Positions 6,856-58,779 of a stretch of 64,000 nt of DNA are shown piece by piece (the first letter of the stretch is position 1; each line of letters begins with the position of its first letter). Origin of the DNA: a virus (Duplodnaviria > Caudoviricetes); the IMG/VR virus record IMGVR_UViG_3300024262_000013; one strand, 5' to 3'. The notes beneath the pieces are model-generated. The model did not search any database and was not told the origin of the DNA. It was given only the letters and a program-made list of their open reading frames with translations. The position numbers and the translations under genes were made by a program.

Positions 6856-7242
6856 ATGGAAGTTATAATTAATGAAAGTCAGATGTTAAGGTTATTTGAA
6901 GTTAACACTACTTTAGATAACCTTAATAACCTTATAGACCCTAAAAAATTTATATATGAATTTGGTTATAAGGATAGCTTTATTGAACCGAGTAGTGTTA
7001 TGTTAGAAGGTAATATTGAAGATGAAGATATAGGTGTTCGAGTCACTATTGGTAAAGTAGTGTATAACGGACAAGATGTTACTGAGTTTGCAAATAACTA
7101 TGTTTTTTTCTCAGGAGACGGTGACGACTCTAACTTTACATTAGAATATAAGGTATTTATTAGTGATAAAATAAATCAGTTATTGAGGGTAACTCCAATT
7201 AAAATAAGTGAGTGGGACGTTTATATTGGTATTGAATACTAA
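6856..7242 (+). CDS. hypothetical protein with a MEVIINESQMLRLFE leader (candidate internal head protein)
   Basis: TATTTATA at 6835; N-terminal leader with INE and LFE sites. Confidence 0.7.
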   Translation: MEVIINESQMLRLFEVNTTLDNLNNLIDPKKFIYEFGYKDSFIEPSSVMLEGNIEDEDIGVRVTIGKVVYNGQDVTEFANNYVFFSGDGDDSNFTLEYKVFISDKINQLLRVTPIKISEWDVYIGIEY

Positions 7243-7270
7243 ACGTGACATATTTATAAAATAAAAAGAT

Positions 7271-7993
7271 ATGAAGATATTAGGACCAAATGATACGGGT
7301 AAAGGAATTTTAATTGAATGGGACGCTGGATTTATTAACCCAAACGATAGACGTAACGCCGATGTAATAAAAGAATCATATGGTCAATTAGACCATTCTA
7401 AACCTTTTGAGTTTTACGCAGTATTACAAAAATACGACACACCAAATAGAAACGGTAGAATATATCCTGAAAAGATATTAAGAAGAGAAGGTGAAAAATA
7501 CCAAGAAGCGATAAAGAAAGGGTTATCTATTTCAGAACTTAATCACCCTGAATCATCATTAATTGATTTAGACCGTGTATCGCATTTAATTACTGAAATG
7601 TGGTGGGAAGGTAATGTATTAATGGGTAAGATAAAGTTATTAACTTCTCCAGGGTTTCATCAGACAGGTGTAGTTTCATGTCCCGGTGACCAAGCTGCAA
7701 ATCTTATGAGACAAGGTGTGACAATGGGGGTTTCCTCTCGTGGTGTCGGTTCATTAGTGAAAAAAGGTGATAGGAACGAAGTACAGGAGGATTTTGAACT
7801 AATTTGTTTTGACTTAGTTTCATCTCCATCGACACCAGGAGCTTACTTATTCTTGAATCAAGATGATAAAATGAAGTATGATGAAAACATTGAAGAAGAA
7901 ACTAAATTAAGAAGTGCTGAAGGTGAACCTGAAAAAGGTTTAGAAAAATCACTTGACTTAATGAAGAAATTAACCGATTATTTAGGATATTAA
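7271..7993 (+). CDS. gp21: prohead maturation protease (T4 gp21-like)
   Basis: ELNHP, GVSSRGVGS and FDLVSSPSTPGA motifs; lies upstream of scaffold and capsid genes. Confidence 0.93.
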   Translation: MKILGPNDTGKGILIEWDAGFINPNDRRNADVIKESYGQLDHSKPFEFYAVLQKYDTPNRNGRIYPEKILRREGEKYQEAIKKGLSISELNHPESSLIDLDRVSHLITEMWWEGNVLMGKIKLLTSPGFHQTGVVSCPGDQAANLMRQGVTMGVSSRGVGSLVKKGDRNEVQEDFELICFDLVSSPSTPGAYLFLNQDDKMKYDENIEEETKLRSAEGEPEKGLEKSLDLMKKLTDYLGY

Positions 7994-8017
7994 TTAATAA
8001 CTAAGAAAAAAAGTAAA

Positions 8018-8227
8018 ATGGAAGAAAAGTATTTTGTCGCAAAAATTCAGTATGACTTACCTGATGAACATTCAGGTAAAATCAAAAAAATTAGAGAAGA
8101 AAAATTAGTAAAAGGTTTCAACGTAACAGATGTTGAGGCTAAAGTTACTAAATCGTTTGAAGGATTCACACATGATTGGAGAATATCCGCATGTGTTGAA
8201 AGTAAAATTGATGAGGTAATCGAGTAG
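8018..8227 (+). CDS. small protein resembling DUF4494
   Basis: YFVAKIQY...KKIREEKLVKGFNVTDVEAKV resembles the N-terminal pattern of the Bacteroidota-associated DUF4494 family (recalled pattern, not searched). Confidence 0.55.
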   Translation: MEEKYFVAKIQYDLPDEHSGKIKKIREEKLVKGFNVTDVEAKVTKSFEGFTHDWRISACVESKIDEVIE

Positions 8228-8252
8228 CCTCGACACACATAATATAATTTAT

Positions 8253-8280
8253 AAATCGGGATAATACCCGATTTTTTTTT
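8253..8280 (+). terminator. intrinsic terminator
   Basis: Stem AAATCGGG / CCCGATTT with a 6-nt loop, followed by a long T-tract. Confidence 0.8.
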
Positions 8281-8367
8281 GCCTATTGTTTCCTAAATGG
8301 ATTTTTTTTTAATTTCGGCATATTTATAATAGAAACTATAAATAAACATTTTGCAAAAAAAACTATA

Positions 8368-9747
8368 ATGAAACAAAAAAAACAAAACTTAGTTGAAGAA
8401 GCGCTATTACAAATGGAGAATTTGAAAGAAGCCGTTACGGAGAATGCAAAAGGAATACTTGCTTCTACTATGAAGGAAGAAATCAGTGAATTAGTAAAAG
8501 AATCTCTAAATAATGAAGAGATTGAAGACGAAGTGTCTGTTGATGCAATGGAAGGTCAAGAAATTGAAAAAGGTGTAAAACACGAAACAAAAGAACAAGA
8601 CGAACTTGACATTGAAGACGACATGGAACTAGACGATGAAATGGAAATCGAAGACGAATCCGATGAGGATGAAGATGAGATTGAAATTGATTCTGATGAA
8701 ATGCTTATGATGGATTTACCAGGTGATGAGTTAGAAGTGGATGATGAAGAAGAAATTCTTTTACCGCTTGACTTAACAGGTGCATCTGACGAAGAAATCC
8801 TTAAGGTCTTTAAAGCTATGGGTGAAGAAGACGGAATCGTTGTTACAAAAGACGGTGACGAAATCACACTTAAAGATGATGAGGCTGATGTTGAATATCA
8901 AATTCAAATGGAGGAATTCGGAGGTAAGAAAGGTGACAATTCAAAATCACATGAGGACTACGAAGAATCTAACGAAGGAGACGAAGTAGTTTATGAAATT
9001 GAACTTGGTGAAGAAGACGATGAAGAGTACGACCACTATCACGGTGCGGAAGAAGACGACGCGGCACATATCGAAGACTTAGAAGACGATATGGAAGATG
9101 ACGCTGAGAAAACTGAAGCTAAGGAGAATTGGGGTTCTAAGAAACACGAATACAGACGTAAGGATGTAAACGGCGTTGAAAAGAAAGCTGGTGAAGGTAA
9201 AGGTGGACACTTTAAAGATTACGAAGGAGAGGCTACAGAAGGTATGACGAGAAGTCACGCTTCGGGACAAAAAGCTTCATCTGACAAATCTAAAGGTTTA
9301 TCAAGACCGGGAGCTATTCCTAATAGAGCAAGGTACAATGAATCTGCACTTGAGAAAGAAGTAAAACAATTAAGAGAAAAGAATGGTGAGTACCGTAAGG
9401 CACTTAACATCTTTAAAGAAAAACTTAATGAAGTTGCTGTTTTCAACTCAAATCTAGCATATGCAACTCGACTGTTTACTGAGCATTCGACAACAAAACA
9501 AGAAAAAATAAACATTTTAAGACGTTTTGACTCTGCGGAAACAATCAAAGAATCAAAAAGTCTTTATAAGACAGTAAGAGAAGATTTAGAATCGAAAGGA
9601 AATTCTTCAGTTGTAACTGAATCAGTTGCATCTAAAGTACAAAAATCACCATCTAAAGGTTCTGCTACTAATCTTATCGAAAGTAAAACTTATGAAAATC
9701 CTCAATTTATGAGAATGAAGGATTTAATGAGTAAACTTCAAAAATAA
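8368..9747 (+). CDS. prohead core scaffold protein (T4 gp22-like position)
   Basis: Very acidic, coiled-coil C-terminus, many [ILV]-x-E sites; lies between protease and capsid genes; TATTTATA at 8321. Confidence 0.8.
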   Translation: MKQKKQNLVEEALLQMENLKEAVTENAKGILASTMKEEISELVKESLNNEEIEDEVSVDAMEGQEIEKGVKHETKEQDELDIEDDMELDDEMEIEDESDEDEDEIEIDSDEMLMMDLPGDELEVDDEEEILLPLDLTGASDEEILKVFKAMGEEDGIVVTKDGDEITLKDDEADVEYQIQMEEFGGKKGDNSKSHEDYEESNEGDEVVYEIELGEEDDEEYDHYHGAEEDDAAHIEDLEDDMEDDAEKTEAKENWGSKKHEYRRKDVNGVEKKAGEGKGGHFKDYEGEATEGMTRSHASGQKASSDKSKGLSRPGAIPNRARYNESALEKEVKQLREKNGEYRKALNIFKEKLNEVAVFNSNLAYATRLFTEHSTTKQEKINILRRFDSAETIKESKSLYKTVREDLESKGNSSVVTESVASKVQKSPSKGSATNLIESKTYENPQFMRMKDLMSKLQK

Positions 9748-9772
9748 AATTAATTAAAAAACAAATACTAAA

Positions 9773-11539
9773 ATGGGAGCATTATTAGAATCAGGTCTTG
9801 TTGGTAACATTGGGTTAAAACACCTTAAAGTTATCAAAGAAGACACAATCAACAAATGGGACAAATTAGGATTCCTAGAGGGTCTTAAAGGTCACGTAAA
9901 AGAGAACATGGCACAACTATATGAAAACCAAGCGTCTCACTTAATTAACGAAGCATCTGCTTCAGATAACTCAGGTTCATTTGAAACAGTAGTCTTCCCT
10001 ATCATTAGAAGAGTATTCTCTAAATTATTAGCTAATGATATTGTATCAGTACAAGCGATGAACTTACCAATCGGTAAATTATTCTACTTTGTACCTAAAA
10101 TTCAAAACCGTCATACGACAGGTGGTGAAGATGTTCAACGACATTGGAAACCTTTTGGAGCACCAGGTGCTACAGGGTCTACAGGTTCAGGATATGGCAC
10201 CGGTAAAAACTTGTATGATAGATTCTACGAAGGAGAAACACCAAATTCAAACCCAGAAGGTTTATTTGACTACTCTAAAGGAGCTTATTCAGGTGTAGTT
10301 ACAAGTGTAACTCCTGTATCATGGTCTGGTTCAGAATTAGTAGTTGCTGCGGCATCTGCTTATACAGGTAACCAAAGAACTATCTTAGTTGCTTTATCAG
10401 GGTTTAGTAATGCAGGTGCAGGTAAACTAATCGGACCTTCAGGTAACGATATGGATACTGAAGAATTCTTATCATCATTAGAAGTTAAAGGTTCAGGTGG
10501 AACTTTTTATAACTTTAATGTTGTAACACAGAAGTATGGTAAAGGTATCGTACAGTACGGTAATGAAGCATCAACTAATTTCCCTCCAGGAACTTACACA
10601 GGTAACGGTGGAAAATATGATGATATTTGTGACGCTACAGGTATAATCTATTTATCAATTGACACTTCAACACCAGCTGTTGGATGTCCTACTTGTTCAA
10701 TAGATGGATACACAGGTACCACATTTACTTTAGGTTCAATACCTTCTTTCTCAGCGGCTTACAGAATCTACGCTAGTTTAGAATTTGAAGACCAAATGGG
10801 TGAGGTTTCTTTTGACCTTGATGCAGTTACTGTATCGGTTACAGAAAGAAAACTAAGAGCACAATGGTCTCCAGAATTAGCACAAGATGTTTCTGCATTC
10901 CACAACATTGATGCTGAAGCTGAATTAACAGCTTTATTATCAGAACAAGTGGCTGCTGAAATTGACCGTGAAATCTTAAGAGACTTAAGAAAAGGTGCGG
11001 CTTGGACATTACGTTGGGATTACAACGGATGGAAGAGAGTGTCTAATGGTTCAGTTAACTATAACCAAAAAGACTGGAATCAGACATTGATTACTGCGAT
11101 TAACCAAATCTCAGCTCAAATTCACAAATCTACATTAAGAGGTGGAGCTAACTGGATTGTTGTTTCTTCGGAAATTTCAGCTATCTTTGATGACTTGGAA
11201 TACTTCCACGTATCAAATGCGGCACCAGACCAAGACCAATACAACATGGGTATTGAGAGAGTAGGAACGTTATCAGGTAGATATCAAGTTTACCGTGACC
11301 CTTACTTCCCACCAAACACAGTGTTATTGGGACATAAAGGTTCTTCATTATTGGATACAGGGTACGTTTACGCACCGTATGTACCATTACAGTTGACACC
11401 TACGATGTATAACCCGTTCAACTTTACTCCGATAAAGGGTATTATGACGAGATACGCTAAGAAAATGGTTAATAACCGTTTCTATGGTAGAATCGTTGTT
11501 GATGGTGTTAGAACATTTGATTTGAACTCTTTAAGATAA
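9773..11539 (+). CDS. gp23: major capsid protein (T4 gp23-like)
   Basis: VFPIIRRVF, VQAMNLPIGKLFY, RKLRAQWSPELAQD, AEIDREI, YAPYVPL and GIMTRYA motifs; candidate maturation site INE60-A61. Confidence 0.97.
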   Translation: MGALLESGLVGNIGLKHLKVIKEDTINKWDKLGFLEGLKGHVKENMAQLYENQASHLINEASASDNSGSFETVVFPIIRRVFSKLLANDIVSVQAMNLPIGKLFYFVPKIQNRHTTGGEDVQRHWKPFGAPGATGSTGSGYGTGKNLYDRFYEGETPNSNPEGLFDYSKGAYSGVVTSVTPVSWSGSELVVAAASAYTGNQRTILVALSGFSNAGAGKLIGPSGNDMDTEEFLSSLEVKGSGGTFYNFNVVTQKYGKGIVQYGNEASTNFPPGTYTGNGGKYDDICDATGIIYLSIDTSTPAVGCPTCSIDGYTGTTFTLGSIPSFSAAYRIYASLEFEDQMGEVSFDLDAVTVSVTERKLRAQWSPELAQDVSAFHNIDAEAELTALLSEQVAAEIDREILRDLRKGAAWTLRWDYNGWKRVSNGSVNYNQKDWNQTLITAINQISAQIHKSTLRGGANWIVVSSEISAIFDDLEYFHVSNAAPDQDQYNMGIERVGTLSGRYQVYRDPYFPPNTVLLGHKGSSLLDTGYVYAPYVPLQLTPTMYNPFNFTPIKGIMTRYAKKMVNNRFYGRIVVDGVRTFDLNSLR

Positions 11540-11560
11540 TATATCTTAATTATAATATTA

Positions 11561-11779: not shown

Positions 11780-11791
11780 ATTATTAAACAT

Positions 11792-12314: not shown

Positions 12315-14591
12315 ATGAGTGAATATATTTTATCAGAAGATTTAGCAGTATGGTTCGGTAATAAGAAAAAAAAGAAAAATTCTTCACAACCGAAAGGACC
12401 ATGGGTTAATATTTGTAAAAAGAAAAAAGGTGGGGGTCATCCACCATGTGGTCGTGAAGACGCAGATAAAGGGGGGTATCCTGTTTGTCGAGGAGCAGGC
12501 GTTGCCGGTAAGATGACTCAAAAAGAAAAAGATTCCGCATGTCGTAGAAAACGTGAAAAAGAAAAGAATGACACTCAATCAGGTAAAGGTCAAAAACCAA
12601 CAAGAATTAAAGTGAAAAATTATAAAAAAAAGAATGAATCTATAGAAAGATTAGTTAGTTTAGTGTTAGAGAATGAAGTTAGTGATGTTAGTGATGTTAG
12701 TGACGTTAATGTATCTAGTAAAGTAATTAAAAGTATTTGCGACTCTAAAAAATTCTGTAGTGCTCAAGGACCAATAACGTTCGGACAATTAAAGAGTATT
12801 GTTGATAGTGCCAAAAACAAAAGATTAGCCAAACATATCGGTGAAGGTGGATTTAAAGCGTTTATACGTTTAATGCCTTGGTTTATACCACAAATTGCCG
12901 TCGCTGGAATGTTTACCTCAGCAATGAGAGCGGCAAATAAGTTATTTGGACCAACATTAAAGGAAACCCCATCATATAAATCTTGGTGGTCGAAAGCAAT
13001 CATGAAAATGTTTAGTTTCGCCGAGGGAGATATAAATCCATCTGACCCTTTTAGTAAAATATTCTTTATAAGTGATGGTCTAATGAATTTAATGAATAGT
13101 GAAAATAAATTAAAATTTGCTTATCATATATCTGAAATTGCGTCGACACAACCTGACGATGAACCAGTGCCTGAATTTTTTGTTGAAAATGAATTAAGAA
13201 GTTGGATAAATCAACGATTTTTATTGGACCCACCATTACAACCAAAACGTTTAGATTCTTTCGATGATGTCCAATTACCTTTAGATAATTCAGATGATGA
13301 ATCATATGATGATAGTCAGGATGAACCTGACTTAATAGATACTAAATTAATCGAATCGGTTTTAAAGTCATATACTAAAGAAAAAACCGTAATATCTGAA
13401 GAATTAAAATATCATATTGATAATAGTCTTTCATTAACTGAAAATGTTTTTAGATATGGTAGTCCCAAATACTTTGACGTAATTAACGAAGCACGTAAAT
13501 TATATAATGAAGGTTACAATCAATGGTCAGAAGAGGAAGTGGAGTTAATAGAATCCGATAGAGGTAGATTTTTTAATTATAAGGGTGAAAGATTACCGTT
13601 TGATTTTCCAATGGTTAATGAACAGGCATTTAGTTGGGACGGAACATATGCCAATGAAATTGATGAACAAGGCGCGGACACGTCTTGGTCTGACGATGAA
13701 GATAAAATAACCCTTCAAGATATTTTAGAACTTACAAAAGACATTAAAATCATAAATTTCCCAACTAAGGAATTGGCAAATATTGTCCTAAATTGGAATG
13801 ATAATCCTGAGGAAATAGAAAGAATTAGTCAAGTAGAAATCTCATCTCAGTACCCTATTTTAATTATGGTAGACGAAAATGATATAATTCAATGGATATT
13901 AGATGGAAATCATAGAGCACAAAAAGCATTAAAGTCTAATTCAGAAACAATACCTGCAAAACTTATTAAACCATCGAATCTTAATCCTAAATCTAAAAAA
14001 ATATTTGGTTTATCTGAATCCGATTATAAAGGTAAAGATGGTGATAACGATTTAAATTACAATGTCTTACTAGGGTATACTATGGAGATGTCAAAATCTG
14101 CATGGGCCGAGTCAAATAAAGATATAAACCGAATAGGTGCACTTAAGGAGTTAAAAATGTATTATTTAGATTTAAGAAATAATAAAACCCCTATGGCTTT
14201 ATCAGTACCTGCGGAGGTAGCTAAGAAGACTGTTGAGAAATTGGTCGGTGAGTTACCTAACGAATCATTATCATCACTTGAGGAATTAGGTGCAAGTCTA
14301 AAGACACTTAGTGAAGCCGAATATAAGGGCAAAGATGTTAGTTTAAACAAACCTAAGTCAGGTGGACCTAAGAAGTGGTATGTGTACGTTAAAAACCCTA
14401 AGACGGGTAAGGTAATCAAAGTATCGTATGGCTCCCCTGTTATGACAGCTAAATGGAATGACCCAGGTGCTCGTAAATCCTTCGCTGCTCGACATAGGTG
14501 TCATATGAAGAAGGATAAGACTAAGGCGGGTTATTGGGCTTGTAGAGCACATAAAGACTTCGGAAAAAACGTCTCAGGGAGATTTTGGTAA
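12315..14591 (+). CDS. multidomain late protein: basic Cys-containing N-domain, ParB/Srx-like domain, basic C-domain
   Basis: YPILIM...WILDGNHRAQKA...IPAKLI (DGNHR at 13902-13916) is a ParB/Srx-type core. Modules are separated by LSE, KNE, LTE, INE and VNE sites. TATTTAT at 12275. Confidence 0.75.
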   Translation: MSEYILSEDLAVWFGNKKKKKNSSQPKGPWVNICKKKKGGGHPPCGREDADKGGYPVCRGAGVAGKMTQKEKDSACRRKREKEKNDTQSGKGQKPTRIKVKNYKKKNESIERLVSLVLENEVSDVSDVSDVNVSSKVIKSICDSKKFCSAQGPITFGQLKSIVDSAKNKRLAKHIGEGGFKAFIRLMPWFIPQIAVAGMFTSAMRAANKLFGPTLKETPSYKSWWSKAIMKMFSFAEGDINPSDPFSKIFFISDGLMNLMNSENKLKFAYHISEIASTQPDDEPVPEFFVENELRSWINQRFLLDPPLQPKRLDSFDDVQLPLDNSDDESYDDSQDEPDLIDTKLIESVLKSYTKEKTVISEELKYHIDNSLSLTENVFRYGSPKYFDVINEARKLYNEGYNQWSEEEVELIESDRGRFFNYKGERLPFDFPMVNEQAFSWDGTYANEIDEQGADTSWSDDEDKITLQDILELTKDIKIINFPTKELANIVLNWNDNPEEIERISQVEISSQYPILIMVDENDIIQWILDGNHRAQKALKSNSETIPAKLIKPSNLNPKSKKIFGLSESDYKGKDGDNDLNYNVLLGYTMEMSKSAWAESNKDINRIGALKELKMYYLDLRNNKTPMALSVPAEVAKKTVEKLVGELPNESLSSLEELGASLKTLSEAEYKGKDVSLNKPKSGGPKKWYVYVKNPKTGKVIKVSYGSPVMTAKWNDPGARKSFAARHRCHMKKDKTKAGYWACRAHKDFGKNVSGRFW

Positions 14592-15819: not shown

Positions 15820-16074
15820 TTAATTTTTATTGGTACAGTACTTACCTGAACATTTTTTTACACCATCTTTATCTGGCATTTTACCCTTACAAACTTGAAC
15901 TGCATAACCATTAGCATAAGCTGATGGATAGACATCGTACTTTGCCTTAGCGGCGTTTTTACCTCTTGAACATAAAGTGGTATCTTTTTTCTTTTTTCTA
16001 CTTCTCTTCTTTTCGTTAATTACTCGTGTAATAATCTCAAGAATGTCGTTTTCGGTTATTGTTAATTTTATCAT
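15820..16074 (-). CDS. small basic protein with an ITE/INE leader (candidate internal head protein)
   Basis: Acidic leader MIKLTITENDILEIITRVINE, then a K/R-rich domain containing YPSAYANGY. Confidence 0.7.
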   Translation of the reverse strand: MIKLTITENDILEIITRVINEKKRSRKKKKDTTLCSRGKNAAKAKYDVYPSAYANGYAVQVCKGKMPDKDGVKKCSGKYCTNKN

Positions 16075-31242: not shown

Positions 31243-31917
31243 ATGGAACATAGAAAAGAAAAAATTAATCAAATTTTTATAGGGGGGTTTGGGGGTACTG
31301 GAAGTCGAGTAGTCTCCGAAATATTTGAAGGTTTTGGTTATTATGTTGGGAGAGAAATTGGTGGTGACTCATTAGACTTCGGTAAAGGAAGATTTGTTCA
31401 ATTTTTTGATTTGTGTTGGGGTAGAAAAGAATTTTCCTACCTTTTTAACTTTATTAATGGACGCTTAAAATTCACTAAAAATTCTAATAAATTTGCAATT
31501 AAACATGGTCATTTTATGTTTATAAATGATGAATTAAAAAAAGAGTACCCGAACTGCAAAACTGTATATGTTATGAGACATCCAATAGATATGGCGGTTA
31601 AAGATAAGTATATACCACATGTAAAGTATGGAAAGTTAATAGACCGTTATGATTTGAGGGGACATCTTTTAAGCGATAGTTTAGATGGTAAAATAAAATA
31701 TTATATAAGACAGTCGATTAAATCATGTAAAGAGGCAGATTTAGTCATAAAGTATGAGGACCTTTGTTTTGACTTAGAAAACCAATTAAAAATAATAAGA
31801 GAGTTTATTGGTGACCCTAATTTAAAGTTACCGGAAATTGTTATAAAACCATCAAAATCAATAGGTACGCAAGTACAATTGTATGATAATTATGATGTGT
31901 CAATGTTAGGTTACTAA
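31243..31917 (+). CDS. sulfotransferase-like protein (P-loop fold)
   Basis: IFIGGFGGTGSR, YVMRHPID and IKYEDL match the 5'-PSB, 3'-PB and YEDL patterns of sulfotransferases. Confidence 0.65.
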   Translation: MEHRKEKINQIFIGGFGGTGSRVVSEIFEGFGYYVGREIGGDSLDFGKGRFVQFFDLCWGRKEFSYLFNFINGRLKFTKNSNKFAIKHGHFMFINDELKKEYPNCKTVYVMRHPIDMAVKDKYIPHVKYGKLIDRYDLRGHLLSDSLDGKIKYYIRQSIKSCKEADLVIKYEDLCFDLENQLKIIREFIGDPNLKLPEIVIKPSKSIGTQVQLYDNYDVSMLGY

Positions 31918-31938
31918 ATTAAAGTATAAAAAAGAAAA

Positions 31939-32607
31939 ATGGTAAATTATATTGTTGCGGTTTATGCCGGTAAAAGGAGGGGTTATTTGGGACATTTACC
32001 AATTAATGAGTTTTTAGAGAAACATTTTAATTTTTTAGAAAAAAAACCTAACCATATTAGTGGATTTACATTTATAATAAATAAATCAGAAAATGATGAA
32101 GAATGTATAAAAAATATAAATAACTTTATAGAAAAATCTAATCTTACAGGTAAACTGATAGTTCGTGAAAACTTACATGGTTCTTACGGAGCATGGGAAA
32201 GGGGTGTATTAGATACTTATACCGATTATCTTTATTCTTTTTTAATTGAAGATGATTATATTCCAAGCAGGGTAGATTTTCTTGATTTTTTTATAAATAA
32301 AATTAAAACTAATTGTTATGGTTATGTCTCGTCTTTTTGGAAAAATAATCACGCTTCCATATCTAATGGTTTATTAGACAACGGTATAGTAAAACCAACT
32401 TTTGATAAACACAATAAGTTATTTCAGTTACAAAAAGATAAAATGTATGGTGGTTTTCTGACGTGTCAACTGACCTTTCTAAATTTATTAGATAGTGAGT
32501 TTACAGATATTACAGATGTCGGACATACTATTTATCGAGCGTCGAGTAAAAAGATACTATACTATGTAAATACAGATTTGCCGTTATTAATAGAGCCAAA
32601 TGCATAA
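31939..32607 (+). CDS. GT-A-like protein, paralogue of the C-domain of 30102..31229
   Basis: Shares VNYI..Y.G.RR, REN..SYG and F(L/I)IEDDYIP with that domain. Confidence 0.65.
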   Translation: MVNYIVAVYAGKRRGYLGHLPINEFLEKHFNFLEKKPNHISGFTFIINKSENDEECIKNINNFIEKSNLTGKLIVRENLHGSYGAWERGVLDTYTDYLYSFLIEDDYIPSRVDFLDFFINKIKTNCYGYVSSFWKNNHASISNGLLDNGIVKPTFDKHNKLFQLQKDKMYGGFLTCQLTFLNLLDSEFTDITDVGHTIYRASSKKILYYVNTDLPLLIEPNA

Positions 32608-32627
32608 ATAAAATTATAAATACTGAA

Positions 32628-33308
32628 ATGAAAAATATTAAAAATAATCCAATAGATTATTACATAGAAAAAATAAATAATAAAGATAATTTCTCATTTA
32701 CTCGATGGGGTGATGGGGAATGGTTTTGTTCAATGGGTGTGCCAGGTCAAAATTGTGATGGTCATAAATATTTTCCTGAAATGAGGAAATCACTCAATAC
32801 CGCGTTAAATAACGATAAAGGATATTATAAAGCGATATGGAACTTAGACCATGGTCAAATAAAAAATATACTTCATATGTTATTACCATTTATAAAAAGT
32901 AATAATATTGACCTTAAATGGGTTAATGCGGGAATATGGGAAGATGCCGCATTAAGTGGTCAGTTAAGTCCATTAGTTAAATCCTTAGAAAGTAGAAATT
33001 TTGTTATTGTGTCAAGTGATAAGTTAAAGAAAATAGATATTAAATATACTGATTTTGTTAGTGTACCTCCAGTTAATTGTTTTTTAGATAAAGAAAGAAT
33101 TAAAAACGATATGATAAAAATGACAGAAAAATACGATGATGTAGTCTTTGGGTTATCATCCTCTATGGCTACTAACGTCATTGTAGATGAACTTTATGAC
33201 TTAATTGGGGATAAGTGTACTATGATTGATTTTGGTTCAATATGGGACCCCTTTGTAGGTCATATGGGTAGGAAATATCATAAAGAATATAAAAAAACAA
33301 ATTTATGA
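32628..33308 (+). CDS. GT-D-fold-like glycosyltransferase
   Basis: FSFTRWGDGE N-terminal motif and IDFGSIWD C-terminal motif. Confidence 0.6.
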   Translation: MKNIKNNPIDYYIEKINNKDNFSFTRWGDGEWFCSMGVPGQNCDGHKYFPEMRKSLNTALNNDKGYYKAIWNLDHGQIKNILHMLLPFIKSNNIDLKWVNAGIWEDAALSGQLSPLVKSLESRNFVIVSSDKLKKIDIKYTDFVSVPPVNCFLDKERIKNDMIKMTEKYDDVVFGLSSSMATNVIVDELYDLIGDKCTMIDFGSIWDPFVGHMGRKYHKEYKKTNL

Positions 33309-34012
33309 TAAATTGTAACCCCTATGGTGGTATTTCTAATAGGATGAAATGTATTATATCCTCTATAGTAAAACATGGAGGTATAAATCTTAGATGGGAT
33401 GTACCTAAAAGTGGTGGTGGGGTTAGATGTAAGTTTAATGATTTATATAAAAATATTTATAATGGTAATGCCATAGGTAGTGTATCTGACTGCAAATTTA
33501 TTCATCCTCAAATGAATACACATAATGAAGGAGGTAAAGATAAGTTACCTATTGACCTTAAAAAAAGATATATTGAAGTTATCAAAACTTTAGAACCTAT
33601 CGATTATATTTCAAATAAAATTAAAGAAGAGAAAGAAAAGTTAGGTGAATATTGTGCAGTTAGCGTTAGAACTTTTAGAAGTTTTCCTGCAGAATATAAC
33701 TCATGGGGTAGACATTTTAAAATAGATAACCTTTTTAGGGTAATGGATGAAATTGAAAGTAAAATTTTATTAACCTGTGATGATACTGAGACAACAAATT
33801 TAATTAAACAAAGATATGATGTTTACACTACGCCTAAAAGAACCAAATTTGGAGATTTTACTACTGTGGAAGGTATGCAAGATATATTAATAGACCAATA
33901 CTTAGGTAGTTTATCAACAGATATTTATGGTACGAATATGAGTAGTTTTTCTGAAATGCAGTGGTGGTTAGGACAATGTAAACCTAATTATCATGAAATG
34001 AAATTACATTAG
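33305..34012 (+). CDS. fucosyltransferase-like GT-B protein (NodZ/GT23/POFUT-type motifs)
   Basis: GGISNRM, AVSVRT, LLTCDD and DQYL...YGTNMSSFS correspond to conserved fucosyltransferase motifs. Confidence 0.65.
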   Translation: MINCNPYGGISNRMKCIISSIVKHGGINLRWDVPKSGGGVRCKFNDLYKNIYNGNAIGSVSDCKFIHPQMNTHNEGGKDKLPIDLKKRYIEVIKTLEPIDYISNKIKEEKEKLGEYCAVSVRTFRSFPAEYNSWGRHFKIDNLFRVMDEIESKILLTCDDTETTNLIKQRYDVYTTPKRTKFGDFTTVEGMQDILIDQYLGSLSTDIYGTNMSSFSEMQWWLGQCKPNYHEMKLH

Positions 34013-34021
34013 TAATAAGTA

Positions 34022-34867
34022 CTATCTTCTTGATGGGTGTAACCACATATTTTTTGAGTCATTAAGTAATTTCTCGTAGTCGTTATAACCATACACTTTT
34101 GAACCAGATAATTTTTCCAACCATGAACCTGTTTTCCAAACTCCCCTATCTTTAGACATACAATTAGGGCAATTATAGATAAAAACATCACCACCAAAAT
34201 AGGAGGGTATAACTGCATCACCCGCAGCTGTTATATGATGTAATGAATTAGATAATATCATAAATTGAACTTCATTATAATTTTTATCAGTTTGAGATAA
34301 TAGTGTCTCAATATCAATTACCGAAGGGTATTTTTTTAAAACCTCTTTATCCCCAATATCTACTGTGGTTTGTCCGTTATCTCTTTGTAGTTTGAACTTA
34401 TCAGGATTATCGGGTGGTCTTATATAAACGATTTGATAATCTTTTTCAAAGGATTTAATTATTTTTTCTAATATTTCACTATTGAAATAATTATGAGGAT
34501 GAGTCATCCATTCTTTAGTGTTTTTATTATTTATAGTTAATATTGGTTTTGTGTAAGTATACTCGTCATTTTTATAAAATTCTTTGAATGGCGGTGGAGA
34601 CCAATTATCATTAACAAATTTAGGTCCTTGAATATTATAACAGGCGGTATTATGTTCTTCTGTTAAAATTTTAGCTAAAATTGGTGGGTCAAAATGTTTA
34701 TTTTCTTCTTTATGGTTTGGGGAAAAATAAAATACCGGTTTAGTACCAATTTTACTTGAAGTCGATTTTAATTTTCCCTCTAAATATTGATGATATGCCA
34801 CAGGTGCGTAATACCATAAAATATAACCAAACTCATCAAACGCTTCTATATTAGGATTATTTTTCAC
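34022..34867 (-). CDS. hypothetical glycan-locus protein (possibly GT-B-like)
   Basis: Clean ORF with EFGYILW and IVYIRP; context among glycosyltransferases. Confidence 0.6.
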   Translation of the reverse strand: MKNNPNIEAFDEFGYILWYYAPVAYHQYLEGKLKSTSSKIGTKPVFYFSPNHKEENKHFDPPILAKILTEEHNTACYNIQGPKFVNDNWSPPPFKEFYKNDEYTYTKPILTINNKNTKEWMTHPHNYFNSEILEKIIKSFEKDYQIVYIRPPDNPDKFKLQRDNGQTTVDIGDKEVLKKYPSVIDIETLLSQTDKNYNEVQFMILSNSLHHITAAGDAVIPSYFGGDVFIYNCPNCMSKDRGVWKTGSWLEKLSGSKVYGYNDYEKLLNDSKNMWLHPSRR

Positions 34868-39473: not shown

Positions 39474-39863
39474 TTAATTATTAAATTTTGCGTTTAAAAT
39501 CACGCTAGACATACTATTGTCTCCGTTAGGGTTATAGTTAGGTCTAGGTTCATTAAAGGTATCATTAGTTAACTTATAAGTAAATATTTTGTCGACTCTG
39601 AATAATCTCCACCCAGGTAATGGTTTTTCACCTATAGTTGCGGTATGTGAGGCCCCTTCCGTATCCCACGCCCTAAGTACCATATTATTACCACCTTTAC
39701 TTCTACCCACACACACAGGTTCAATAGTCCTATAACCTTTACCACCAGGTTCTTTACCATCGTAATTAATAATCACAACTTTTCGGTCTCTAATTGACTT
39801 TTCAATATCATTAAGAGACGCGATTTCATTTATGAGACCTTTAACCGTGGTAAGTAAATTCAT
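39474..39863 (-). CDS. stand-alone WYL-domain-like protein
   Basis: INYDG...RTIEPVCVG...LRAWD...WRLFRVDKI pattern; leader ends in LINE. Confidence 0.7.
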   Translation of the reverse strand: MNLLTTVKGLINEIASLNDIEKSIRDRKVVIINYDGKEPGGKGYRTIEPVCVGRSKGGNNMVLRAWDTEGASHTATIGEKPLPGWRLFRVDKIFTYKLTNDTFNEPRPNYNPNGDNSMSSVILNAKFNN

Positions 39864-47544: not shown

Positions 47545-47545
47545 A

Positions 47546-48658
47546 TTATATTACATACATTTGACGAGGTAGAGCTCGGTACTGTAATGATTTATTAAGG
47601 TTTTCAGCTAAATTAGCCTCTCTTTCCATCATTTTATCTGGTCTTAATCTTTCTAACCTAGCAATTAACTCTTCCATTAATTTACTTTTTTCGTCCTTAG
47701 CCTCTGTAAGTAATGAATCATAATCCATTGTGACTTCAGAATCAGGTGTCTTTAAATTACCACTAAATTTACCTCGGACACGACCTAAAGTTTCTTTAAC
47801 GTATGCGACAAACCATTTCCTAACCCAAGCCTGTGCTGGGTTATTTAACTCCGCCCATAACATCTCATCAATAGGTATATCGGAAGGTAATCTAACAACG
47901 TCAGGGTTATTTGCTAAACAATCTTCCCTATCATCGGTCTCATAATACCAATACCATACTTTATATTCGTTATTTGCTATATTACCAAAATCAAACTCCC
48001 CACCAGGCACATTATAAAGATGTAGTGCTTTTTTACCTTCAGGAAGTGCAGTAATACGGTATGTTAACTCACCACTTATAATTCTTCGTTTTAAATTTAT
48101 GTCTTGCATTCTAAGTAATATATCAAATGCGGGTGTTATAGCATAATTTCCAGCTGAACCCATTTGTGAGAAACCGGCACCACCACCGAGACCTCCACCA
48201 CCCATGCCTCCCATACCACCCATAAATGGGTCGAAAAAAGCCGCGTCTAACTCCGCACGAGTAAACCATAAAATTTCATTAACTTCTCTACCTGCGGGTA
48301 TTTCATATATTTGTTGACCGTTTACGAGGTTAATATAATCCCTTTTAAGTATATAGTCACCACCCGCTTGTAGTCCAACAATTTTAGAATATGCGTAAGT
48401 GTATTGAGTTTCCCAATCTAAGGAACGTGTGGTAAATGCCCTTGTGACGGATTCTTCATCTAAGTTCATCCCATAAAGAGATGTCCATTGTGATTCAATT
48501 AACCAATCATTCACATATTGGGCGTAATCTTGAATTGAAAACTCTAATAGTGAGTCCATCATTTCATCTTCGACTTCTACACTACGTATTGGTGCACCTA
48601 GTAGGTGTTTTACACGAGTATATAGTTTTGTTCTTTGTGGTTCATTAATTACTGACAT
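47546..48658 (-). CDS. neck/head-tail adaptor (T4 gp13-like)
   Basis: RVKHLLGAPIRSVEVEDEMM resembles the gp13-type LGAP..VE N-terminus; TATTTATA 15 nt upstream. Confidence 0.75.
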   Translation of the reverse strand: MSVINEPQRTKLYTRVKHLLGAPIRSVEVEDEMMDSLLEFSIQDYAQYVNDWLIESQWTSLYGMNLDEESVTRAFTTRSLDWETQYTYAYSKIVGLQAGGDYILKRDYINLVNGQQIYEIPAGREVNEILWFTRAELDAAFFDPFMGGMGGMGGGGLGGGAGFSQMGSAGNYAITPAFDILLRMQDINLKRRIISGELTYRITALPEGKKALHLYNVPGGEFDFGNIANNEYKVWYWYYETDDREDCLANNPDVVRLPSDIPIDEMLWAELNNPAQAWVRKWFVAYVKETLGRVRGKFSGNLKTPDSEVTMDYDSLLTEAKDEKSKLMEELIARLERLRPDKMMEREANLAENLNKSLQYRALPRQMYVI

Positions 48659-48699: not shown

Positions 48700-50262
48700 T
48701 TAATTAATATATTCAGATGATTCGTTAAAAACGTATCTACCGTTAATTATTTTGGTAGAATTATTCTCAAAAACAACAGTTCCTAACTTATCACTATGGA
48801 AAACTAAGTAATCTGTTTTATAGGGCTTAACGTTACCAGTACCATAAACAACCACTTTACCGTTTCGTTTATTAACACCGTTAAATGGTTTTATTTGTAT
48901 GGTTTTAGACCCTTCAGGTAATTGGACAATTGCATCAATACCTTTAATCATATCATCAACATCACCTAATTCCCCAACTTTTTTAACTTTCTCGGTTTTA
49001 AAAATTTCTCTTAAACTTACAACCGCATCTACTTCACGTTTATCACCAAACTTATTAGTTTTATCTAAACCAGACATGATAGTTTTAAATGTTGGGGAGT
49101 CTGAATTAAAAATGCTATATCTTAATTCAACTAAATATTTATTTAATCTATCTACTTCCGATAATTGTTGGTTACGGTTTTTATCGTTAAAATTAATGGC
49201 ATCGATACCATATTTTCTTAAGTACTTATTAATATCACTAACTAATGTACAAAACGCAGTATAATTAGTGTTTAATTTATTAATAACTGAACGACCTTTT
49301 TGTTCGTAATCGTAAATACCTGACATTTGACCTTCAGAGTACTTATTTTTTTCATACCAATATTCTGAAAAGACCTCTTTTAATATATCCATAATGGTAT
49401 ACATAAAACGTTTTTTAATTTCAGGATTAGTATTAAATAGTCGTCTATATGTTTGAACTTGATTTCTATTACATCCGGCACTTGCCCCTTCAGAGATAAT
49501 ACTTTTTACGATTTTTGTCTCATTTAATTTTTTTGATGTTTGAGATACGTATAATTCGTTAACGTAATCCCAATTAATTACCGACCAAAAATTCCTTATA
49601 TAATCATCTCTTTTATTACGATATTTTAAGTAATATGCGTGTTCCCAGGTATCTAAACAAAGTAATGGATAACCACCATTTTTTACAACATCCATTAATG
49701 GGTTATCTTGGTTCGGTGTTGACATAACTTTTAATCTACCCGATTTAGTCAGAACCAACCATGTCCATCCAGACCCGAAGTTTTTAAGTGCCTCATTACT
49801 AAATATTTTTTTAAATTTTGGAAAATTATCAAAATCTTTGATTATCTTATTGTAGATTTCTCCATGAGCTTTTTGTTTTTCAGGTGACATGATTTTCCAA
49901 AAAAGTGAGTGGTTAAATACTCCTCCACCATTGTCTCTGATTGTTTTATTATATCTCGATATACCTTTTATTATTTGTTCTAATCCAATATCTCCATCAA
50001 TTTTACTTGATAGAGCGTCATTTAATTTTTTTACGTATCCTTTATAGTGTTTGTTATAGTGAGTATCCATAGTTTCTGAGTCTATAAATCTCTCTAAGGC
50101 AGAATAAGAGTACGGCAATTTTTCAATACCTATTTTTTTCATTTCTGTTAAAATTTCTTTAGGGAATTGCGAGTTTTTGTGATTAACTTCTGTTAATTCT
50201 TCTCGGCTATTTAATTTATGTTCTATAAATGAGATTTTATTTATTAATCTTTTGAACTTCAT
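48700..50262 (-). CDS. sod: Mn/Fe superoxide dismutase fused to a 40-aa leader and a C-terminal PD-(D/E)xK-like domain
   Basis: LPYSYSALE, HYNKHY, GGVFNHSLFW, GSGWTWL, NQDNP and DTWEHAYY show all four metal ligands. The C-domain has GDKRE...DDMIKGIDAIV...TIQIKP. Confidence 0.9.
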   Translation of the reverse strand: MKFKRLINKISFIEHKLNSREELTEVNHKNSQFPKEILTEMKKIGIEKLPYSYSALERFIDSETMDTHYNKHYKGYVKKLNDALSSKIDGDIGLEQIIKGISRYNKTIRDNGGGVFNHSLFWKIMSPEKQKAHGEIYNKIIKDFDNFPKFKKIFSNEALKNFGSGWTWLVLTKSGRLKVMSTPNQDNPLMDVVKNGGYPLLCLDTWEHAYYLKYRNKRDDYIRNFWSVINWDYVNELYVSQTSKKLNETKIVKSIISEGASAGCNRNQVQTYRRLFNTNPEIKKRFMYTIMDILKEVFSEYWYEKNKYSEGQMSGIYDYEQKGRSVINKLNTNYTAFCTLVSDINKYLRKYGIDAINFNDKNRNQQLSEVDRLNKYLVELRYSIFNSDSPTFKTIMSGLDKTNKFGDKREVDAVVSLREIFKTEKVKKVGELGDVDDMIKGIDAIVQLPEGSKTIQIKPFNGVNKRNGKVVVYGTGNVKPYKTDYLVFHSDKLGTVVFENNSTKIINGRYVFNESSEYIN

Positions 50263-52109: not shown

Positions 52110-52625
52110 ATGAGTAACAGAAAGATACCTATAACACGATTAGAGAAGTTTTTTGGGTCCGAAGATTTTGGTTTAGAACAAAGTATGGGTCGAGAATGGC
52201 TTGAGGGTGACATGCATTTTACTATAGTTTTATATCGGGTTGACCGACAAAAAACAAAAACTGACGATGTTTATGGTGAATCATTAGAAGATGGAATACA
52301 ATTTTTACCACCTGTAGAGTTTAAAGGTTATGTTACCATTGAGTCACCTGATAATCAAAATTATGCTAGTTCTAACTTATCTCAAATGGAGCCCGGGAAC
52401 TTAAAAGTGGGTGTCTATCAAGAATCATTAGATGAGTTAAATATCGACATTGATTATGGTGATTACTTAGGGTATTATGAAACTGAGGACCGAGTAAGAT
52501 ATTATTCAGTTGTAAATGACGGCCGAGTTGTTAGTGATAATAAACATACGTATGGAGGTTACAAACCTTTCTACCGAAGTATAATTGCGGCACCTGTTAA
52601 TGACGGTGAATTTAGAGGGATATGA
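52110..52625 (+). CDS. putative head-closure/neck protein (T4 gp14-like position)
   Basis: VLYRVD...DDVYGES pattern; late motif at 52097; upstream of the tail terminator. Confidence 0.5.
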   Translation: MSNRKIPITRLEKFFGSEDFGLEQSMGREWLEGDMHFTIVLYRVDRQKTKTDDVYGESLEDGIQFLPPVEFKGYVTIESPDNQNYASSNLSQMEPGNLKVGVYQESLDELNIDIDYGDYLGYYETEDRVRYYSVVNDGRVVSDNKHTYGGYKPFYRSIIAAPVNDGEFRGI

Positions 52626-53182
52626 AAAAATTAATAAAAGAGATAAATTTAATTAAAAGTTGTATGGTACATATGTGTGAAGGTATCGAGGGCGAAAAAG
52701 TTGTGTGTGATGATTGTGGTTGGTCTTGGGATTTAAGTGACGGTGGGGATGACCCATATATTTGTCATAAATGTGGTAACAATAATCAAGAGGTAAACTA
52801 CGTAGGTGAAAAAGTTATGGTTTATTATAATTTACATAAACACACATTTTCAGTTTCATATAAGGGTAAAATTGTTATGTATGCCGATTACGTTAAATTA
52901 AATGACGTAGAGTTTAGAGTTAGACAGGGAGGAAAAGAAAAAGTAAGGGATGAGATGAGAAAAAATGTCCACGCGTTTGTTATCGGAACCTTAGTGGAGT
53001 TTTGTAATTACCCGTGTGAAGATTTACCCGATGAGCCAAATGAAAACATAATCACTTATAATCCGTATAAGTACGATTCATTCGTCAGAAAGGGAAGTGA
53101 AAAACCAATCTATAACGCTAATGAGGTTGAGATGATTAACTCTAAAAATAAAGTTTTTTTTATAAGTGAAAATAAAAAATAA
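52622..53182 (+). CDS. hypothetical protein: leader, CxxC...CxxC zinc ribbon and a conserved-looking C-domain
   Basis: CDDCGWSW...PYICHKCG; YYNLHKHTFSV...RKNVHAFV. Confidence 0.7.
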   Translation: MKKLIKEINLIKSCMVHMCEGIEGEKVVCDDCGWSWDLSDGGDDPYICHKCGNNNQEVNYVGEKVMVYYNLHKHTFSVSYKGKIVMYADYVKLNDVEFRVRQGGKEKVRDEMRKNVHAFVIGTLVEFCNYPCEDLPDEPNENIITYNPYKYDSFVRKGSEKPIYNANEVEMINSKNKVFFISENKK

Positions 53183-57500: not shown

Positions 57501-57702
57501 AGACTCAGTTAACCCTATCTTAGATAGTATTAGGAGAGACAGAGGTTTAATTGACTTTAGAGTTACAGTTTCAGGTACACCTGAAGATTTAGACTCTAAC
57601 ACGTTAACAGGTAAAATTTACTTGAAACCAACAAGAGCACTTGAATTTATTGATATTGAATTTTTGATTACTCCTACAGGAGCATCTTTTGAAGATATTT
57701 AA
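54508..57702 (+). CDS. gp18: contractile tail sheath protein (T4 gp18-like, 1064 aa)
   Basis: N-terminal VSPGVYTSERDLS; C-terminal YYPW, PWFASAGYTRG, LYQGRLNPI, WGNKTL and RINVRRL motifs. Confidence 0.96.
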   Translation: MATSNKVFVSPGVYTSERDLSFVAQSVGVTTLGLVGETISGPAFEPIFITNYDEFQSYFGGTNPTKFVNTQIPKYEAAYIAKSYLQQSNQLFVTRVLGLSGYDAGPSWSITTIGNLDSSGTTATGVLGPFSISFTGVSGTSTSVGVNYSALPISITDVITNPYTTYTGGESSIIRDMDRYLYSEIVNNTTSGETSYFWGAVSASTFNSTTGDTVNQTGALGSVNTNVFNVEDILFESCDLTASVNDPWYYALFTETANVYNGTGFGMGVTSMTNVGLNFQGTAKVYVTSYSGTPYSGYHDVVVATLRSRGIDNYTNDDGPVYEVSGVTDVLLDCTGAYSGISTNPFSTFAVSATTTDGDNFIFQTSFNLSSSNYLSKVFGKSNFAKPKSEVPLFVEEEYYNLLNTGYRLGKVRGLSCDLVDLPSARQDLATNTSIGWYLERYQTPETPYFVSELRGNQVYNMFKVLTISDGNTANREIKVSIMNISFNNGTFDVVVRDFFDTDANPVVLEKFTNCTMDMNQNSFVAKRIGTSNGEFELRSRFIMLEMNEDAPYDSLPCGFRGYQTRQYSGVNSPFLEYKTKYDTPGEVIWNPPFGAATGTDNETRSSGDRVRRTFLGVSNTVGIDSDFLQYKGKQNPTNLGTATDSQPWGYLTKGYHMDSGATVIMISSNYITSGETAFEVGDASFDSEPTEGSPYFRLNARKFTVVPSGGFDGWDIYRQYRTNGDRYQLGAAGFRKGAAPSISYPTATGWGAFKQIVGPDQLTWANTDYYAYLWGQYTFNNPESVNINVFTTPGIDYVNNSNLVESAIDMIEQDRADSIYLCTTPDYQMFTPSLGSFDTDFIYPEEAVDNLVDTGIDSNYTATYYPWILTRDTVNNTQIYLPPTGEVARNLALTDNIAFPWFASAGYTRGLVNSVKARKKLTQEDRDVLYQGRLNPIATFSDVGTVIWGNKTLQVKESALDRINVRRLLLQARKLISAVAVRLLFEQNDEQVRQEFLDSVNPILDSIRRDRGLIDFRVTVSGTPEDLDSNTLTGKIYLKPTRALEFIDIEFLITPTGASFEDI

Positions 57703-57724
57703 TAACTAACTATATTTATAATAA

Positions 57725-57748
57725 AGAGGGGAGTTAATTCTCCCTTCT
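57725..57748 (+). other. GC-rich hairpin between a late motif and a small ORF
   Basis: AGAGGGGAG / CTCCCTTCT (one G-U pair). It follows TATTTATA at 57713 and has no long T-tract, so it may be a terminator or a leader structure. Confidence 0.5.
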
Positions 57749-57778
57749 TAGCCAATTAAAAGTTTAAATAAAAATAAA

Positions 57779-57931
57779 ATGGAATTTAAGAAAAAAATAC
57801 TTAACGAAGCTTTAGACGTAAAGTCTAACGGTAGTAAGTCTTTCTCAGAAAAACCTCAGAATATTGTTATTTCTGAAACTCAACTAGAAAGATTAATAGA
57901 AAAAATTAATAAGAAACCAAATAGAAAATGA
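57779..57931 (+). CDS. 50-aa protein (not in the ORF track)
   Basis: Manual translation gives MEFKKKILNEALDVKSNGSKSFSEKPQNIVISETQLERLIEKINKKPNRK; ATGA overlap with the next gene. Confidence 0.7.
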   Translation: MEFKKKILNEALDVKSNGSKSFSEKPQNIVISETQLERLIEKINKKPNRK

Positions 57932-58779
57932 GTTTAAAGGGAGTCATAAGGGAATTTTTTAGCGAAAGGTTACTACGTGAAGGGTTTGACCCTGAAGGTA
58001 ATCCAGACTTAAAATATTATGCGTTCGACTGGGACGATAACATCGCTACGATGCCGACCCAAATTTTAGTATTAACTGACAATGATGAAGAGGTAGGTAT
58101 GTCTACTGAAGATTTCGCAGATTATCGAAGTATGATAGGTAAAGAGCCTTTTGAATACAAAGGTAAGATGATTGTGGGATACTCTAAGGACCCTTATAAG
58201 AATTTCGGTATACAAGGTGATAACGCATTTATAATTGATTCTATGTTAGCTAAACCAGGTCCATCATGGGGTGATTTTGTTGAAGCGATAAATGGGGGTT
58301 CCATTTTTTCAATAATCACCGCTAGAGGTCACACACCTTCAGTTTTACGTGAAGCTATTTATAATATGATAGTTACTGACCATAATGGTATTAGTAAGGA
58401 ATCTTTAATTGACAACCTTAAAAAATATCGTAATATTACGGGTGACGACAGAGAAAATTACTTCGGTATGATTAACGACTATTTGGACCTTAATAGGTAT
58501 TACCCCGTAACTTACGGTGAAGGTGATGCTGCTGACCCTGAAGAAGGGAAGATTAAAGCTTTACGTGAATTTATCTCTTATGTTAGAGATATAAGTAAGA
58601 AAATTGGTAAAGAAGCCTTTCTTAAAAATGATATAAAAAATAATTTTGTACCAATGATTGGGTTTTCTGATGATGACCCAGGCAATGTAGAAAAAATTAA
58701 AGCCTTTTTAAATAAAGAATATAAAGATAAACCAGTTAAAACATATTTAACTAAAGGAGGAAATAAAAAAGAAGTATAA
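57928..58779 (+). CDS. HAD-superfamily phosphatase with an N-terminal leader
   Basis: AFDWDDNI (motif I), ITARG (motif II) and FSDDD (motif IV); leader MSLKGVIREFFSERLLREG. Confidence 0.75.
   Translation: MSLKGVIREFFSERLLREGFDPEGNPDLKYYAFDWDDNIATMPTQILVLTDNDEEVGMSTEDFADYRSMIGKEPFEYKGKMIVGYSKDPYKNFGIQGDNAFIIDSMLAKPGPSWGDFVEAINGGSIFSIITARGHTPSVLREAIYNMIVTDHNGISKESLIDNLKKYRNITGDDRENYFGMINDYLDLNRYYPVTYGEGDAADPEEGKIKALREFISYVRDISKKIGKEAFLKNDIKNNFVPMIGFSDDDPGNVEKIKAFLNKEYKDKPVKTYLTKGGNKKEV

Follow-up and report, generated by a model that had tools for sequence, protein, structure and literature searches.

The question raised by this locus is whether a series of otherwise unrelated phage genes encodes proteins that are addressed to the capsid by an N-terminal leader and trimmed there by the prohead protease. 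These genes lie between positions 6,856 and 58,779 of a 64,000-nucleotide stretch of viral DNA (IMG/VR virus record IMGVR_UViG_3300024262_000013, Caudoviricetes), the whole of which is hereafter called the window. An initial annotation, made from the sequence alone, had pointed to eight leaders ending in [ILV]-x-E and read them as one family of late genes for protease-processed capsid cargo. In T4, the gp21 protease cuts after L/I-x-E, and a 10-residue capsid targeting sequence (CTS) sends internal proteins to the prohead core before being removed (PMC9026906, PMC3012670). As developed below, the observation is confirmed in part and its interpretation supported in part, an expanded T4-type system of capsid-targeting propeptides in a marine jumbo phage being, in our judgement, the rather probable account.

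The source of the window is an uncultured clade of marine jumbo phages of ~300 kb within the T4 superfamily, an assignment based on its relationships to three contigs, namely the IMG/VR contig G001 (161,923 bp), which spans the window at ~97% identity, and two complete relatives, G002 (322 kb) and G004 (294 kb), whose capsid protein is 75-76% identical to that of the window. Metagenomic homologues number in the thousands, Tara sources among them. All eight leaders are encoded exactly as the initial annotation had given them; they belong to the following genes, where a slash marks the putative junction and tag A is described further below:

6856..7242, plus strand: p6856, a small protein in the gp67/gp68 position between portal and protease, leader MEVIINE/..LFE/
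12315..14591, plus strand: p12315, a mosaic 758-residue basic and Cys-rich protein, leader MSEYILSE/ at 12315-12338
15820..16074, minus strand: p15820, an 84-residue basic protein, leader MIKLTITE..VINE, residues 1-21 (16012-16074) being a degenerate tag A
39474..39863, minus strand: p39474, a WYL-like 129-residue protein, leader MNLLTTVKGLINE, residues 1-13 (39825-39863), ending LINE/
48700..50262, minus strand: a fusion of Fe/Mn superoxide dismutase (SOD; Pfam SOD domains at residues 47-236) and a nuclease-like C-domain
50143-50262, minus strand: the 40-residue SOD leader, ending ILTE40/M
52622..53182, plus strand: p52622, L5-gp82-like with a zinc ribbon (Pfam PF25735, 8e-31, residues 62-175), leader MKKLIKE (52622-52642)
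57779..57931, plus strand: p57779, a 50-residue open reading frame (ORF) overlapping the p57928 gene by 4 nt (ATGA), MEFKKKILNE..VISE
57928..58779, plus strand: p57928, a HAD-like protein, leader MSLKGVIRE..LLRE, residues 1-18 (57928-57981)

The N-terminal Glu Motif

The proteome is rich in I, L, K and E, and occurrences of the loose motif [ILV]-x-E abound: it is found in the first 26 residues of 30 of the 67 window proteins and, in G001, in the first 15 residues of 47 of 164 proteins, against 35 expected from interior windows. The initial annotation had staked its reading on this motif being more frequent at the N-termini in question than in replication and metabolic proteins; on these terms it fails, because metabolic and replication genes carry the loose motif equally often (7/21 vs 23/46, first 26 residues, p=0.29). 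Being near chance in the window and barely above chance in G001, the loose motif was rejected as a discriminating signal. The same comparison holds once the motif is tightened to [ILV][IL]-x-E, a form that all eight leaders fit, often with Lys or Arg immediately before: within the first 26 residues, none of the 21 glycan, PhoH and polymerase genes of the window has it, vs 11 of the 46 others (p=0.013).

When occurrences of the tight motif in the first 15 residues were compared with expected counts, G002 had 40 (11.0 expected) and G004 had 48 (14.8 expected), with a z of 9.7 for each; G001 had 15 (6.1 expected) and the window had 8 (3.6 expected; z 2.7). With a preceding basic residue, the figures were 27 vs 3.1 (G002) and 42 vs 5.1 (G004), and removal of paralogues changed the excess little. 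Variants with D, N or Q in place of E were not enriched at N-termini, and AT-rich codon use therefore does not explain the signal. The statistic was calibrated on two other phages: in T4 (NC_000866, same ORF caller), 16 occurrences vs 6.3 expected leave an excess of ~10, in agreement with the tally of known gp21 substrates, while Staphylococcus phage K, with 30% GC and no S77 protease, shows no excess (6 vs 8.2). The tight motif is a genuine N-terminal signal, specific to Glu. Two further approaches were abandoned, namely an extended helical pattern, h-x-E-x-x-h-x-x-h-h (h, hydrophobic), which was not general across the leaders, and site conservation among the closest relatives, which was uninformative as interior sites are kept equally well (median 0.92).

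Protease and Capsid Protein of the Head Module

The signal found at these N-termini has a counterpart in the head module, which comprises the following features:

7271..7993, plus strand: prohead protease of family S77 (T4 gp21 type; Pfam PF03420)
8368..9747, plus strand: acidic scaffold-like protein in the gp22 position, from gene order
9773..11539, plus strand: gp23-like major capsid protein (Pfam Gp23, 1.4e-71, 242 bits)
9773-9952, plus strand: putative capsid-protein propeptide, residues 1-60, ending LINE/A
47546..48658, minus strand: neck adaptor with MSVINE6 (phrog_211, head-tail adaptor)

The protease named by the initial annotation is indeed an S77 peptidase of the gp21 type, as seen from its profile matches (PF03420, 5.9e-24, 85 bits for a cut-off of 27; phrog_207, 1e-43; PDB 5JBL, 1.4e-15), its 36% identity to T4 gp21 and the alignment of His92 (in ELNHP) and Ser155 (in GVSSRG) with the catalytic H85 and S140 of gp21, the positions of both residues being Ala in the inactive 5JBL chain. 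It carries an N-terminal site of its own, GILIE16/W, comparable to LLIE9 of gp21, with LIE16 present in 36/36 orthologues. The proposed capsid site INE60/A61, likened to that of T4 gp23, stands as well, both by its sequence and by the gp23-like profile of the protein. LINE60/A is invariant across 72 relatives of 72-91% overall identity, in which residues 1-60 are near-invariant and are followed by a variable Ala/Ser stretch; it lies just upstream of a conserved N-arm segment and, in the alignment to T4 gp23, falls in the N-arm. The putative propeptide thus ends in L/I-x-E in the manner of gp23, with cleavage itself being predicted.

No family match was found for the scaffold-like protein, of which the N-terminal 45 residues (window 8368-8510) are far more conserved than the variable remainder; the conserved N-termini of capsid and scaffold-like proteins may serve as surfaces for mutual contact or for contact with the leaders. 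The MSVINE motif of the neck adaptor is kept in G002 and G004. T4 neck proteins are not known to be gp21 substrates, and the adaptor is probably a motif carrier but not a substrate. Between portal and protease, a helical 244-residue protein (5328-6062) contains 14 [ILV]xE vs 8.4 expected (z 2.3) and is a candidate for a core protein, one that the protease would break down.

Selection on Individual Leader Junctions

The junction itself, rather than the leader around it, is what selection has kept in several of the eight families, the SOD fusion foremost. Among its 120 closest homologues, 108 have a leader of at least 8 residues (8-70 residues) before the canonical MKKIGIE.LPY start, and although these leaders differ widely, 108/108 end in [FIL][ILV]xE with a variable P2. 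A second, internal site, IISE258/G, lies between the two domains of the window protein and is kept in fusions as IISE/G or LITE/G. The residue after the leader junction is Met (E/MKKIGIE) in 107 of the 108 homologues and Gly in one (GKKI); this Met may in addition permit a leaderless SOD to be initiated internally. The G004 SOD (116081-116788; 235 residues) is devoid of the nuclease-like C-domain (window 48700-49482), hence the fusion is specific to a sub-lineage.

In 49 orthologues of p12315, the block DLAVWFG.. always comes directly after [ILVM]-x-E, whether the N-terminal extension is 8 or 130 residues long, and distant versions start with h-x-E/[AGS]-T-S-S, resembling LINE/ASAS of the capsid protein. 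The protein contains 20 [ILV]xE vs 10.9 expected. Its relatives include versions of 130-320 residues, and its C-terminal phrog_7595 domain shares 88% identity with the C-terminal end of the short ones; a tag-like helix, NESIERLVSLVLE, occupies residues 107-119 and a ParB-like DGNHR motif is found near residue 530.

The leader of p57928 has two sites, VIRE9 and LLRE18/GF. In its homologues, h-h-[KR]-E and L-x-E/GF are kept in ~116/120 while the rest of the leader varies, E18 and G19 being invariant, and the G004 orthologue has a different leader of 9 residues ending LIIVE/GF. In the AlphaFold2 (AF2) model, residues 3-16 stand apart as a helix of low confidence. For p39474, [IL][IL]xE with a variable P2 is found at residue 13 in 120/120 homologues and also in G002 and G004. 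The p15820 orthologues of more distant relatives carry canonical tag A before a payload matching phrog_27331. Beyond its leader, p15820 contains a poly-Lys run of ~5 to 14 Lys across relatives (L013-L032), encoded by an A-rich, homopolymer-like tract that may for this reason be prone to slippage.

The remaining leaders have fewer comparisons to draw upon. MKKLIKE of p52622 corresponds to the first half of tag B (see below), complete in the orthologue of L104/L240, while the G004 orthologue starts with MKILITE..LIIE/N. Only 4 orthologues were found for p6856, with the leader kept in the 2 full-length ones, and domain searches of p6856 returned no match. For p57779, which contains ILNE10 and a tag-like helix, VISETQLERLIEK, a 47-50-residue ORF is kept in 21 relatives; it may be a free leader-like peptide. 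Taken by sequence comparison, a selected h-h-x-E junction is supported for SOD, p12315, p15820, p57928 and p39474, with weaker support for p52622, p6856 and p57779, the orthologues of the latter two being few or very close.

The claim that a recognisable domain begins right after the Glu applies to SOD (Pfam match from residue 47), p12315 and p57928 and roughly to p15820 and p39474; it fails for p52622, where a 55-residue zinc-ribbon stretch intervenes, and for p6856, which has no recognised domain. Pfam gave no match for the SOD C-domain, p57928, p12315 or p6856. The SOD C-domain has TaqI/MjaI-like atlas neighbours (0.92-0.94), p57928 has HAD-like ones together with a weak Foldseek match to HAD (E 4e-3, TM 0.33-0.45), and the WYL match of p39474 (19.5 bits) falls below the Pfam cut-off of 21.8; these three assignments are leads only.

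Two Conserved Tags on Unrelated Payloads

The eight leaders are not homologous to one another, so that the single family originally proposed dissolves into tag A, tag B, a coiled-coil SOD leader and short leaders of 7-13 residues. Tag A has 22-23 residues and the consensus MKKIIRLTESDLTRIVKRVIKEQ. When viral contigs were scanned for its core, written as a degenerate DNA pattern that contained no ATG, at least 120 stretches were returned, and among the matches listed the motif lies 4-6 codons past the first ATG in 116/136. The carriers are at least 109 distinct proteins of 70-445 residues that share nothing besides the tag, copies of which vary at synonymous sites; the tag is a module. Tag B, with the consensus M-K-K-x-I-I-x-E-I-S-R-I-K-x-M-M-G-L-I-x-E, is N-terminal in 7/7 cases and precedes five payloads.

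A leader hidden Markov model (HMM) of tag A, a check that the initial annotation had proposed, gave 19 strong matches in G002 and G004, all 19 starting at residue 1 and ending h-h-x-E, and reached in the window only the degenerate copy of p15820 (score 12, E 0.0015, at the N-terminus) and, marginally, p57779 (score 5). G001 has a canonical tag A copy just beyond the window. Within the window, tags are thus confined to p15820 (tag A) and p52622 (half of tag B), the other leaders being short and individual. All five of the five large tag-bearing contigs fall within the clade of the window. Contig G005, considered as a tag carrier without an S77 protease, was rejected: it has the tail sheath of the clade, and S77 is missing since the head module as a whole, TerL included, is missing from the contig. 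The tag consensus had no match by tblastn in GenBank phages, nor the tag strings in a full-text literature search, which is weak evidence of novelty.

Most tag A payloads have no family; among the matches listed, seven have a PG_binding_1, four a LysM and one an OmpA domain. Motif carriers in G002 and G004 include lysozyme, M23 peptidase, GH19, SOD and L5-gp82-like proteins. Payloads directed at the envelope would be in keeping with ejection through the tail. In G002 (31641-34179) and G004 (1186-3547 and 285715-293080), at least 12 small proteins of 100-120 residues form a paralogous family; its members start MKYLITESQL..KYLDNQDF, the first half being tag A-like and followed by a conserved domain.

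A Candidate Late Promoter

The octamer TATTTATA lies 12-20 nt upstream (47 nt at 8321) of about 11 mostly structural genes, at the following sites:

5308, 6835, 7251, 8321, 58857, 60413, plus strand: TATTTATA
17548, 21683, 48673, 50274, minus strand: TATTTATA

Over the window as a whole it shows no enrichment (24 vs 18.8). It differs from the T4 box TATAAATA and is a candidate for a late promoter. One copy is found 14 nt upstream of p6856 and another precedes the SOD gene, as for the structural genes, which supports only partially the earlier description of the leader carriers as late genes. Leader genes stand preferentially behind the box in G004 (p=2e-4) and G001 (p=0.0075).

Proposed Mechanism and Alternative Explanations

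In the expanded T4-type system that is considered rather probable here, the S77 protease would most likely cut after the Glu of [FILV]-[ILV]-x-E, and a large set of unrelated proteins would carry N-terminal leaders ending in its site, in the form of a short peptide of 7-13 residues, a helical leader of 30-40 residues or a conserved tag of 22-23 residues. By analogy with the internal proteins of T4, each leader would attach to the prohead core during assembly and later be cut off by the protease; the mature payload would remain inside the head alongside the DNA and may enter the host together with it. The proposed payloads are the SOD-nuclease fusion, the HAD-like and WYL-like proteins and basic Cys-rich proteins, with peptidoglycan-binding and lytic modules in relatives. 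A bolder version may be held tentatively, and with clearly less confidence: the tag family ending h-h-x-E, chiefly the near-invariant tag of 22-23 residues, might be a general cargo-loading signal, working at either terminus, by which 30-45 proteins (~1/10 of the proteome) would be packed into the capsid and co-injected, e.g., SOD, phosphatase-like enzymes, restriction-like nucleases and modules that are lytic or bind peptidoglycan. No capsid cargo system known so far would then be as large or as modular.

Several observations weigh against capsid loading. Some tag A copies are internal or C-terminal and follow x-N-E without a hydrophobic P3; the helical hydrophobic (amphipathic) moment of the tags is not significant, merely suggestive; [ILV]xE sites are not enriched in the scaffold-like protein; and the association of leader genes with TATTTATA is absent in G002. 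Since 11-27 chance carriers of the tight motif are expected per genome, and obvious non-virion proteins of G002 and G004 have it too (RNR small subunit, DegT, PPK2, a sigma factor and primase), no single leader is certain, and roughly one quarter to one third of the motif carriers would be due to chance. Cleavage, capsid targeting, the binding partner and injection are steps that we infer by analogy.

The strongest alternative, though an unlikely one, is that leaders and tags act as N-terminal helices with some function other than capsid loading, docking or oligomerising payloads on the tail, the envelope or a hub protein, or packing on their own domain, with the Glu being structural. Conservation of the tags far beyond the needs of a cleavage site, their presence at C-termini too, the wealth of envelope-acting peptidoglycan-binding, LysM and OmpA modules among the payloads, the motif retained by a neck protein and the fairly conserved N-terminal helix as a whole in p39474 and p57928 would all be natural for such helices. 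What they leave unexplained is that the same h-h-x-E stands before a conserved domain on differing leaders (SOD, p12315 and G004 p57928), that this motif matches both the specificity of gp21 and the site of the capsid protein itself, and that the known substrates of T4 yield the same statistic.

It is less probable again that most of the eight leaders are chance matches in a proteome rich in I, L, K and E, with real substrates limited, as in T4, to the capsid protein, the protease and one or two core proteins. In favour of this reading, the loose motif is near chance in the window, the excess of the tight motif there is only ~4-5 proteins and comparative support for p6856 and p57779 is little; the reading does not account for an excess of 29-43 proteins per complete genome (z ~10), for an enrichment specific to E with 0/21 metabolic genes having the tight motif, or for junctions kept in the orthologues of 5/8 leaders. 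Finally, a nucleotide-level feature of gene starts, i.e., AT-rich 5' coding for initiation without Shine-Dalgarno sequences or a recombination cassette boundary, is very improbable and already disfavoured, for even if the genome has 30-34% GC (30-36% in the window) and no obvious Shine-Dalgarno sequences were seen, and Lys-containing motif variants are somewhat enriched at N-termini, phage K included, tag copies vary at synonymous positions, variants with Asp or Asn are just as AT-rich yet show no enrichment, and phage K has no enrichment of the Glu motif.

Comparison with Known Systems

A close parallel to the proposed capsid-targeting propeptides of the clade is the CTS of T4 IPI, IPII and IPIII, likewise an N-terminal peptide on unrelated payloads that ends in hydrophobic-x-Glu, in a phage with an S77 protease and a gp23-type capsid and with payload genes in plastic regions (PMC3012670, PMC9026906). 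Since no likeness to the 10-residue CTS (MKTYQEFIAE) goes beyond the terminal h-x-E, the leaders of the window clade are considered an analogue and not a member of the T-even CTS family. Tags A and B are longer (21-23 residues) and are found on more than 100 payloads, sometimes at the C-terminus; candidate substrates per genome are ~3-4 times those of T4. The short leaders of the window are in the same style as the short propeptides cleaved by gp21 (Alt, gp67, gp24, gp22, gp21 and gp23), with MELITE/, MEGLIE/, MAKINELLRE/S and ..FLTE65/A in T4 (NC_000866) resembling MEVIINE/, MSEYILSE/, ..VIRE..LLRE/G and ..LINE60/A. Payloads such as the SOD-nuclease fusion and the HAD-like, WYL-like and L5-gp82-like proteins have no counterpart among T4 head proteins.

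The phiKZ-like giants, namely phiKZ, 201phi2-1 and SPN3US, are also jumbo phages with many head proteins trimmed after Glu, as a gp21-related protease processes head and ejection proteins, i.e., 19 substrates in phiKZ and 9 in SPN3US (PMC10052503). They differ in their motif, S/A/G-x-E, which is not enriched at N-termini here (13 [ASG].E vs 19.2, first 12 residues), and in propeptides often 100-250 residues long; moreover, the capsid protein of the window clade is plainly gp23-like and a shared tag is not known in phiKZ-like phages.

Cargo peptides of encapsulins are short and terminal and by themselves direct diverse enzymes into a shell of the HK97 fold, but are usually C-terminal and uncleaved; oxidative-stress enzymes like SOD are typical cargo. 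Their sequence is unrelated to that of the leaders here and no encapsulin is involved.

T-even phages already exemplify the principle, as do phiKZ-like phages with a different motif. What is new is the scale, each complete genome showing an excess of 29-43 proteins, together with the types of cargo and the presence of long conserved tags on more than 100 payloads. If true, capsid cargo loading would be a major strategy of abundant marine jumbo phages instead of a T-even curiosity, dozens of "hypothetical" genes per genome would receive a first function, as proteins that accompany the DNA and deal with oxidative stress, host DNA, defence systems or the cell wall; a natural, compact and highly conserved tag would also be at hand with which foreign proteins could be brought into large capsids. 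As each leader specifies exactly where the mature protein should begin, the prediction lends itself to a direct test.

Genomic Surroundings

The window is densely coding, and its head genes are arranged in the order TerL-portal-..-protease-scaffold-like-major capsid protein, the first two being located as follows:

1625-3397: TerL
3445-5307: portal

Besides the neck adaptor, its other genes encode a family-B DNA polymerase and a tail sheath, and genes for glycan enzymes make up a block of 16 kb.

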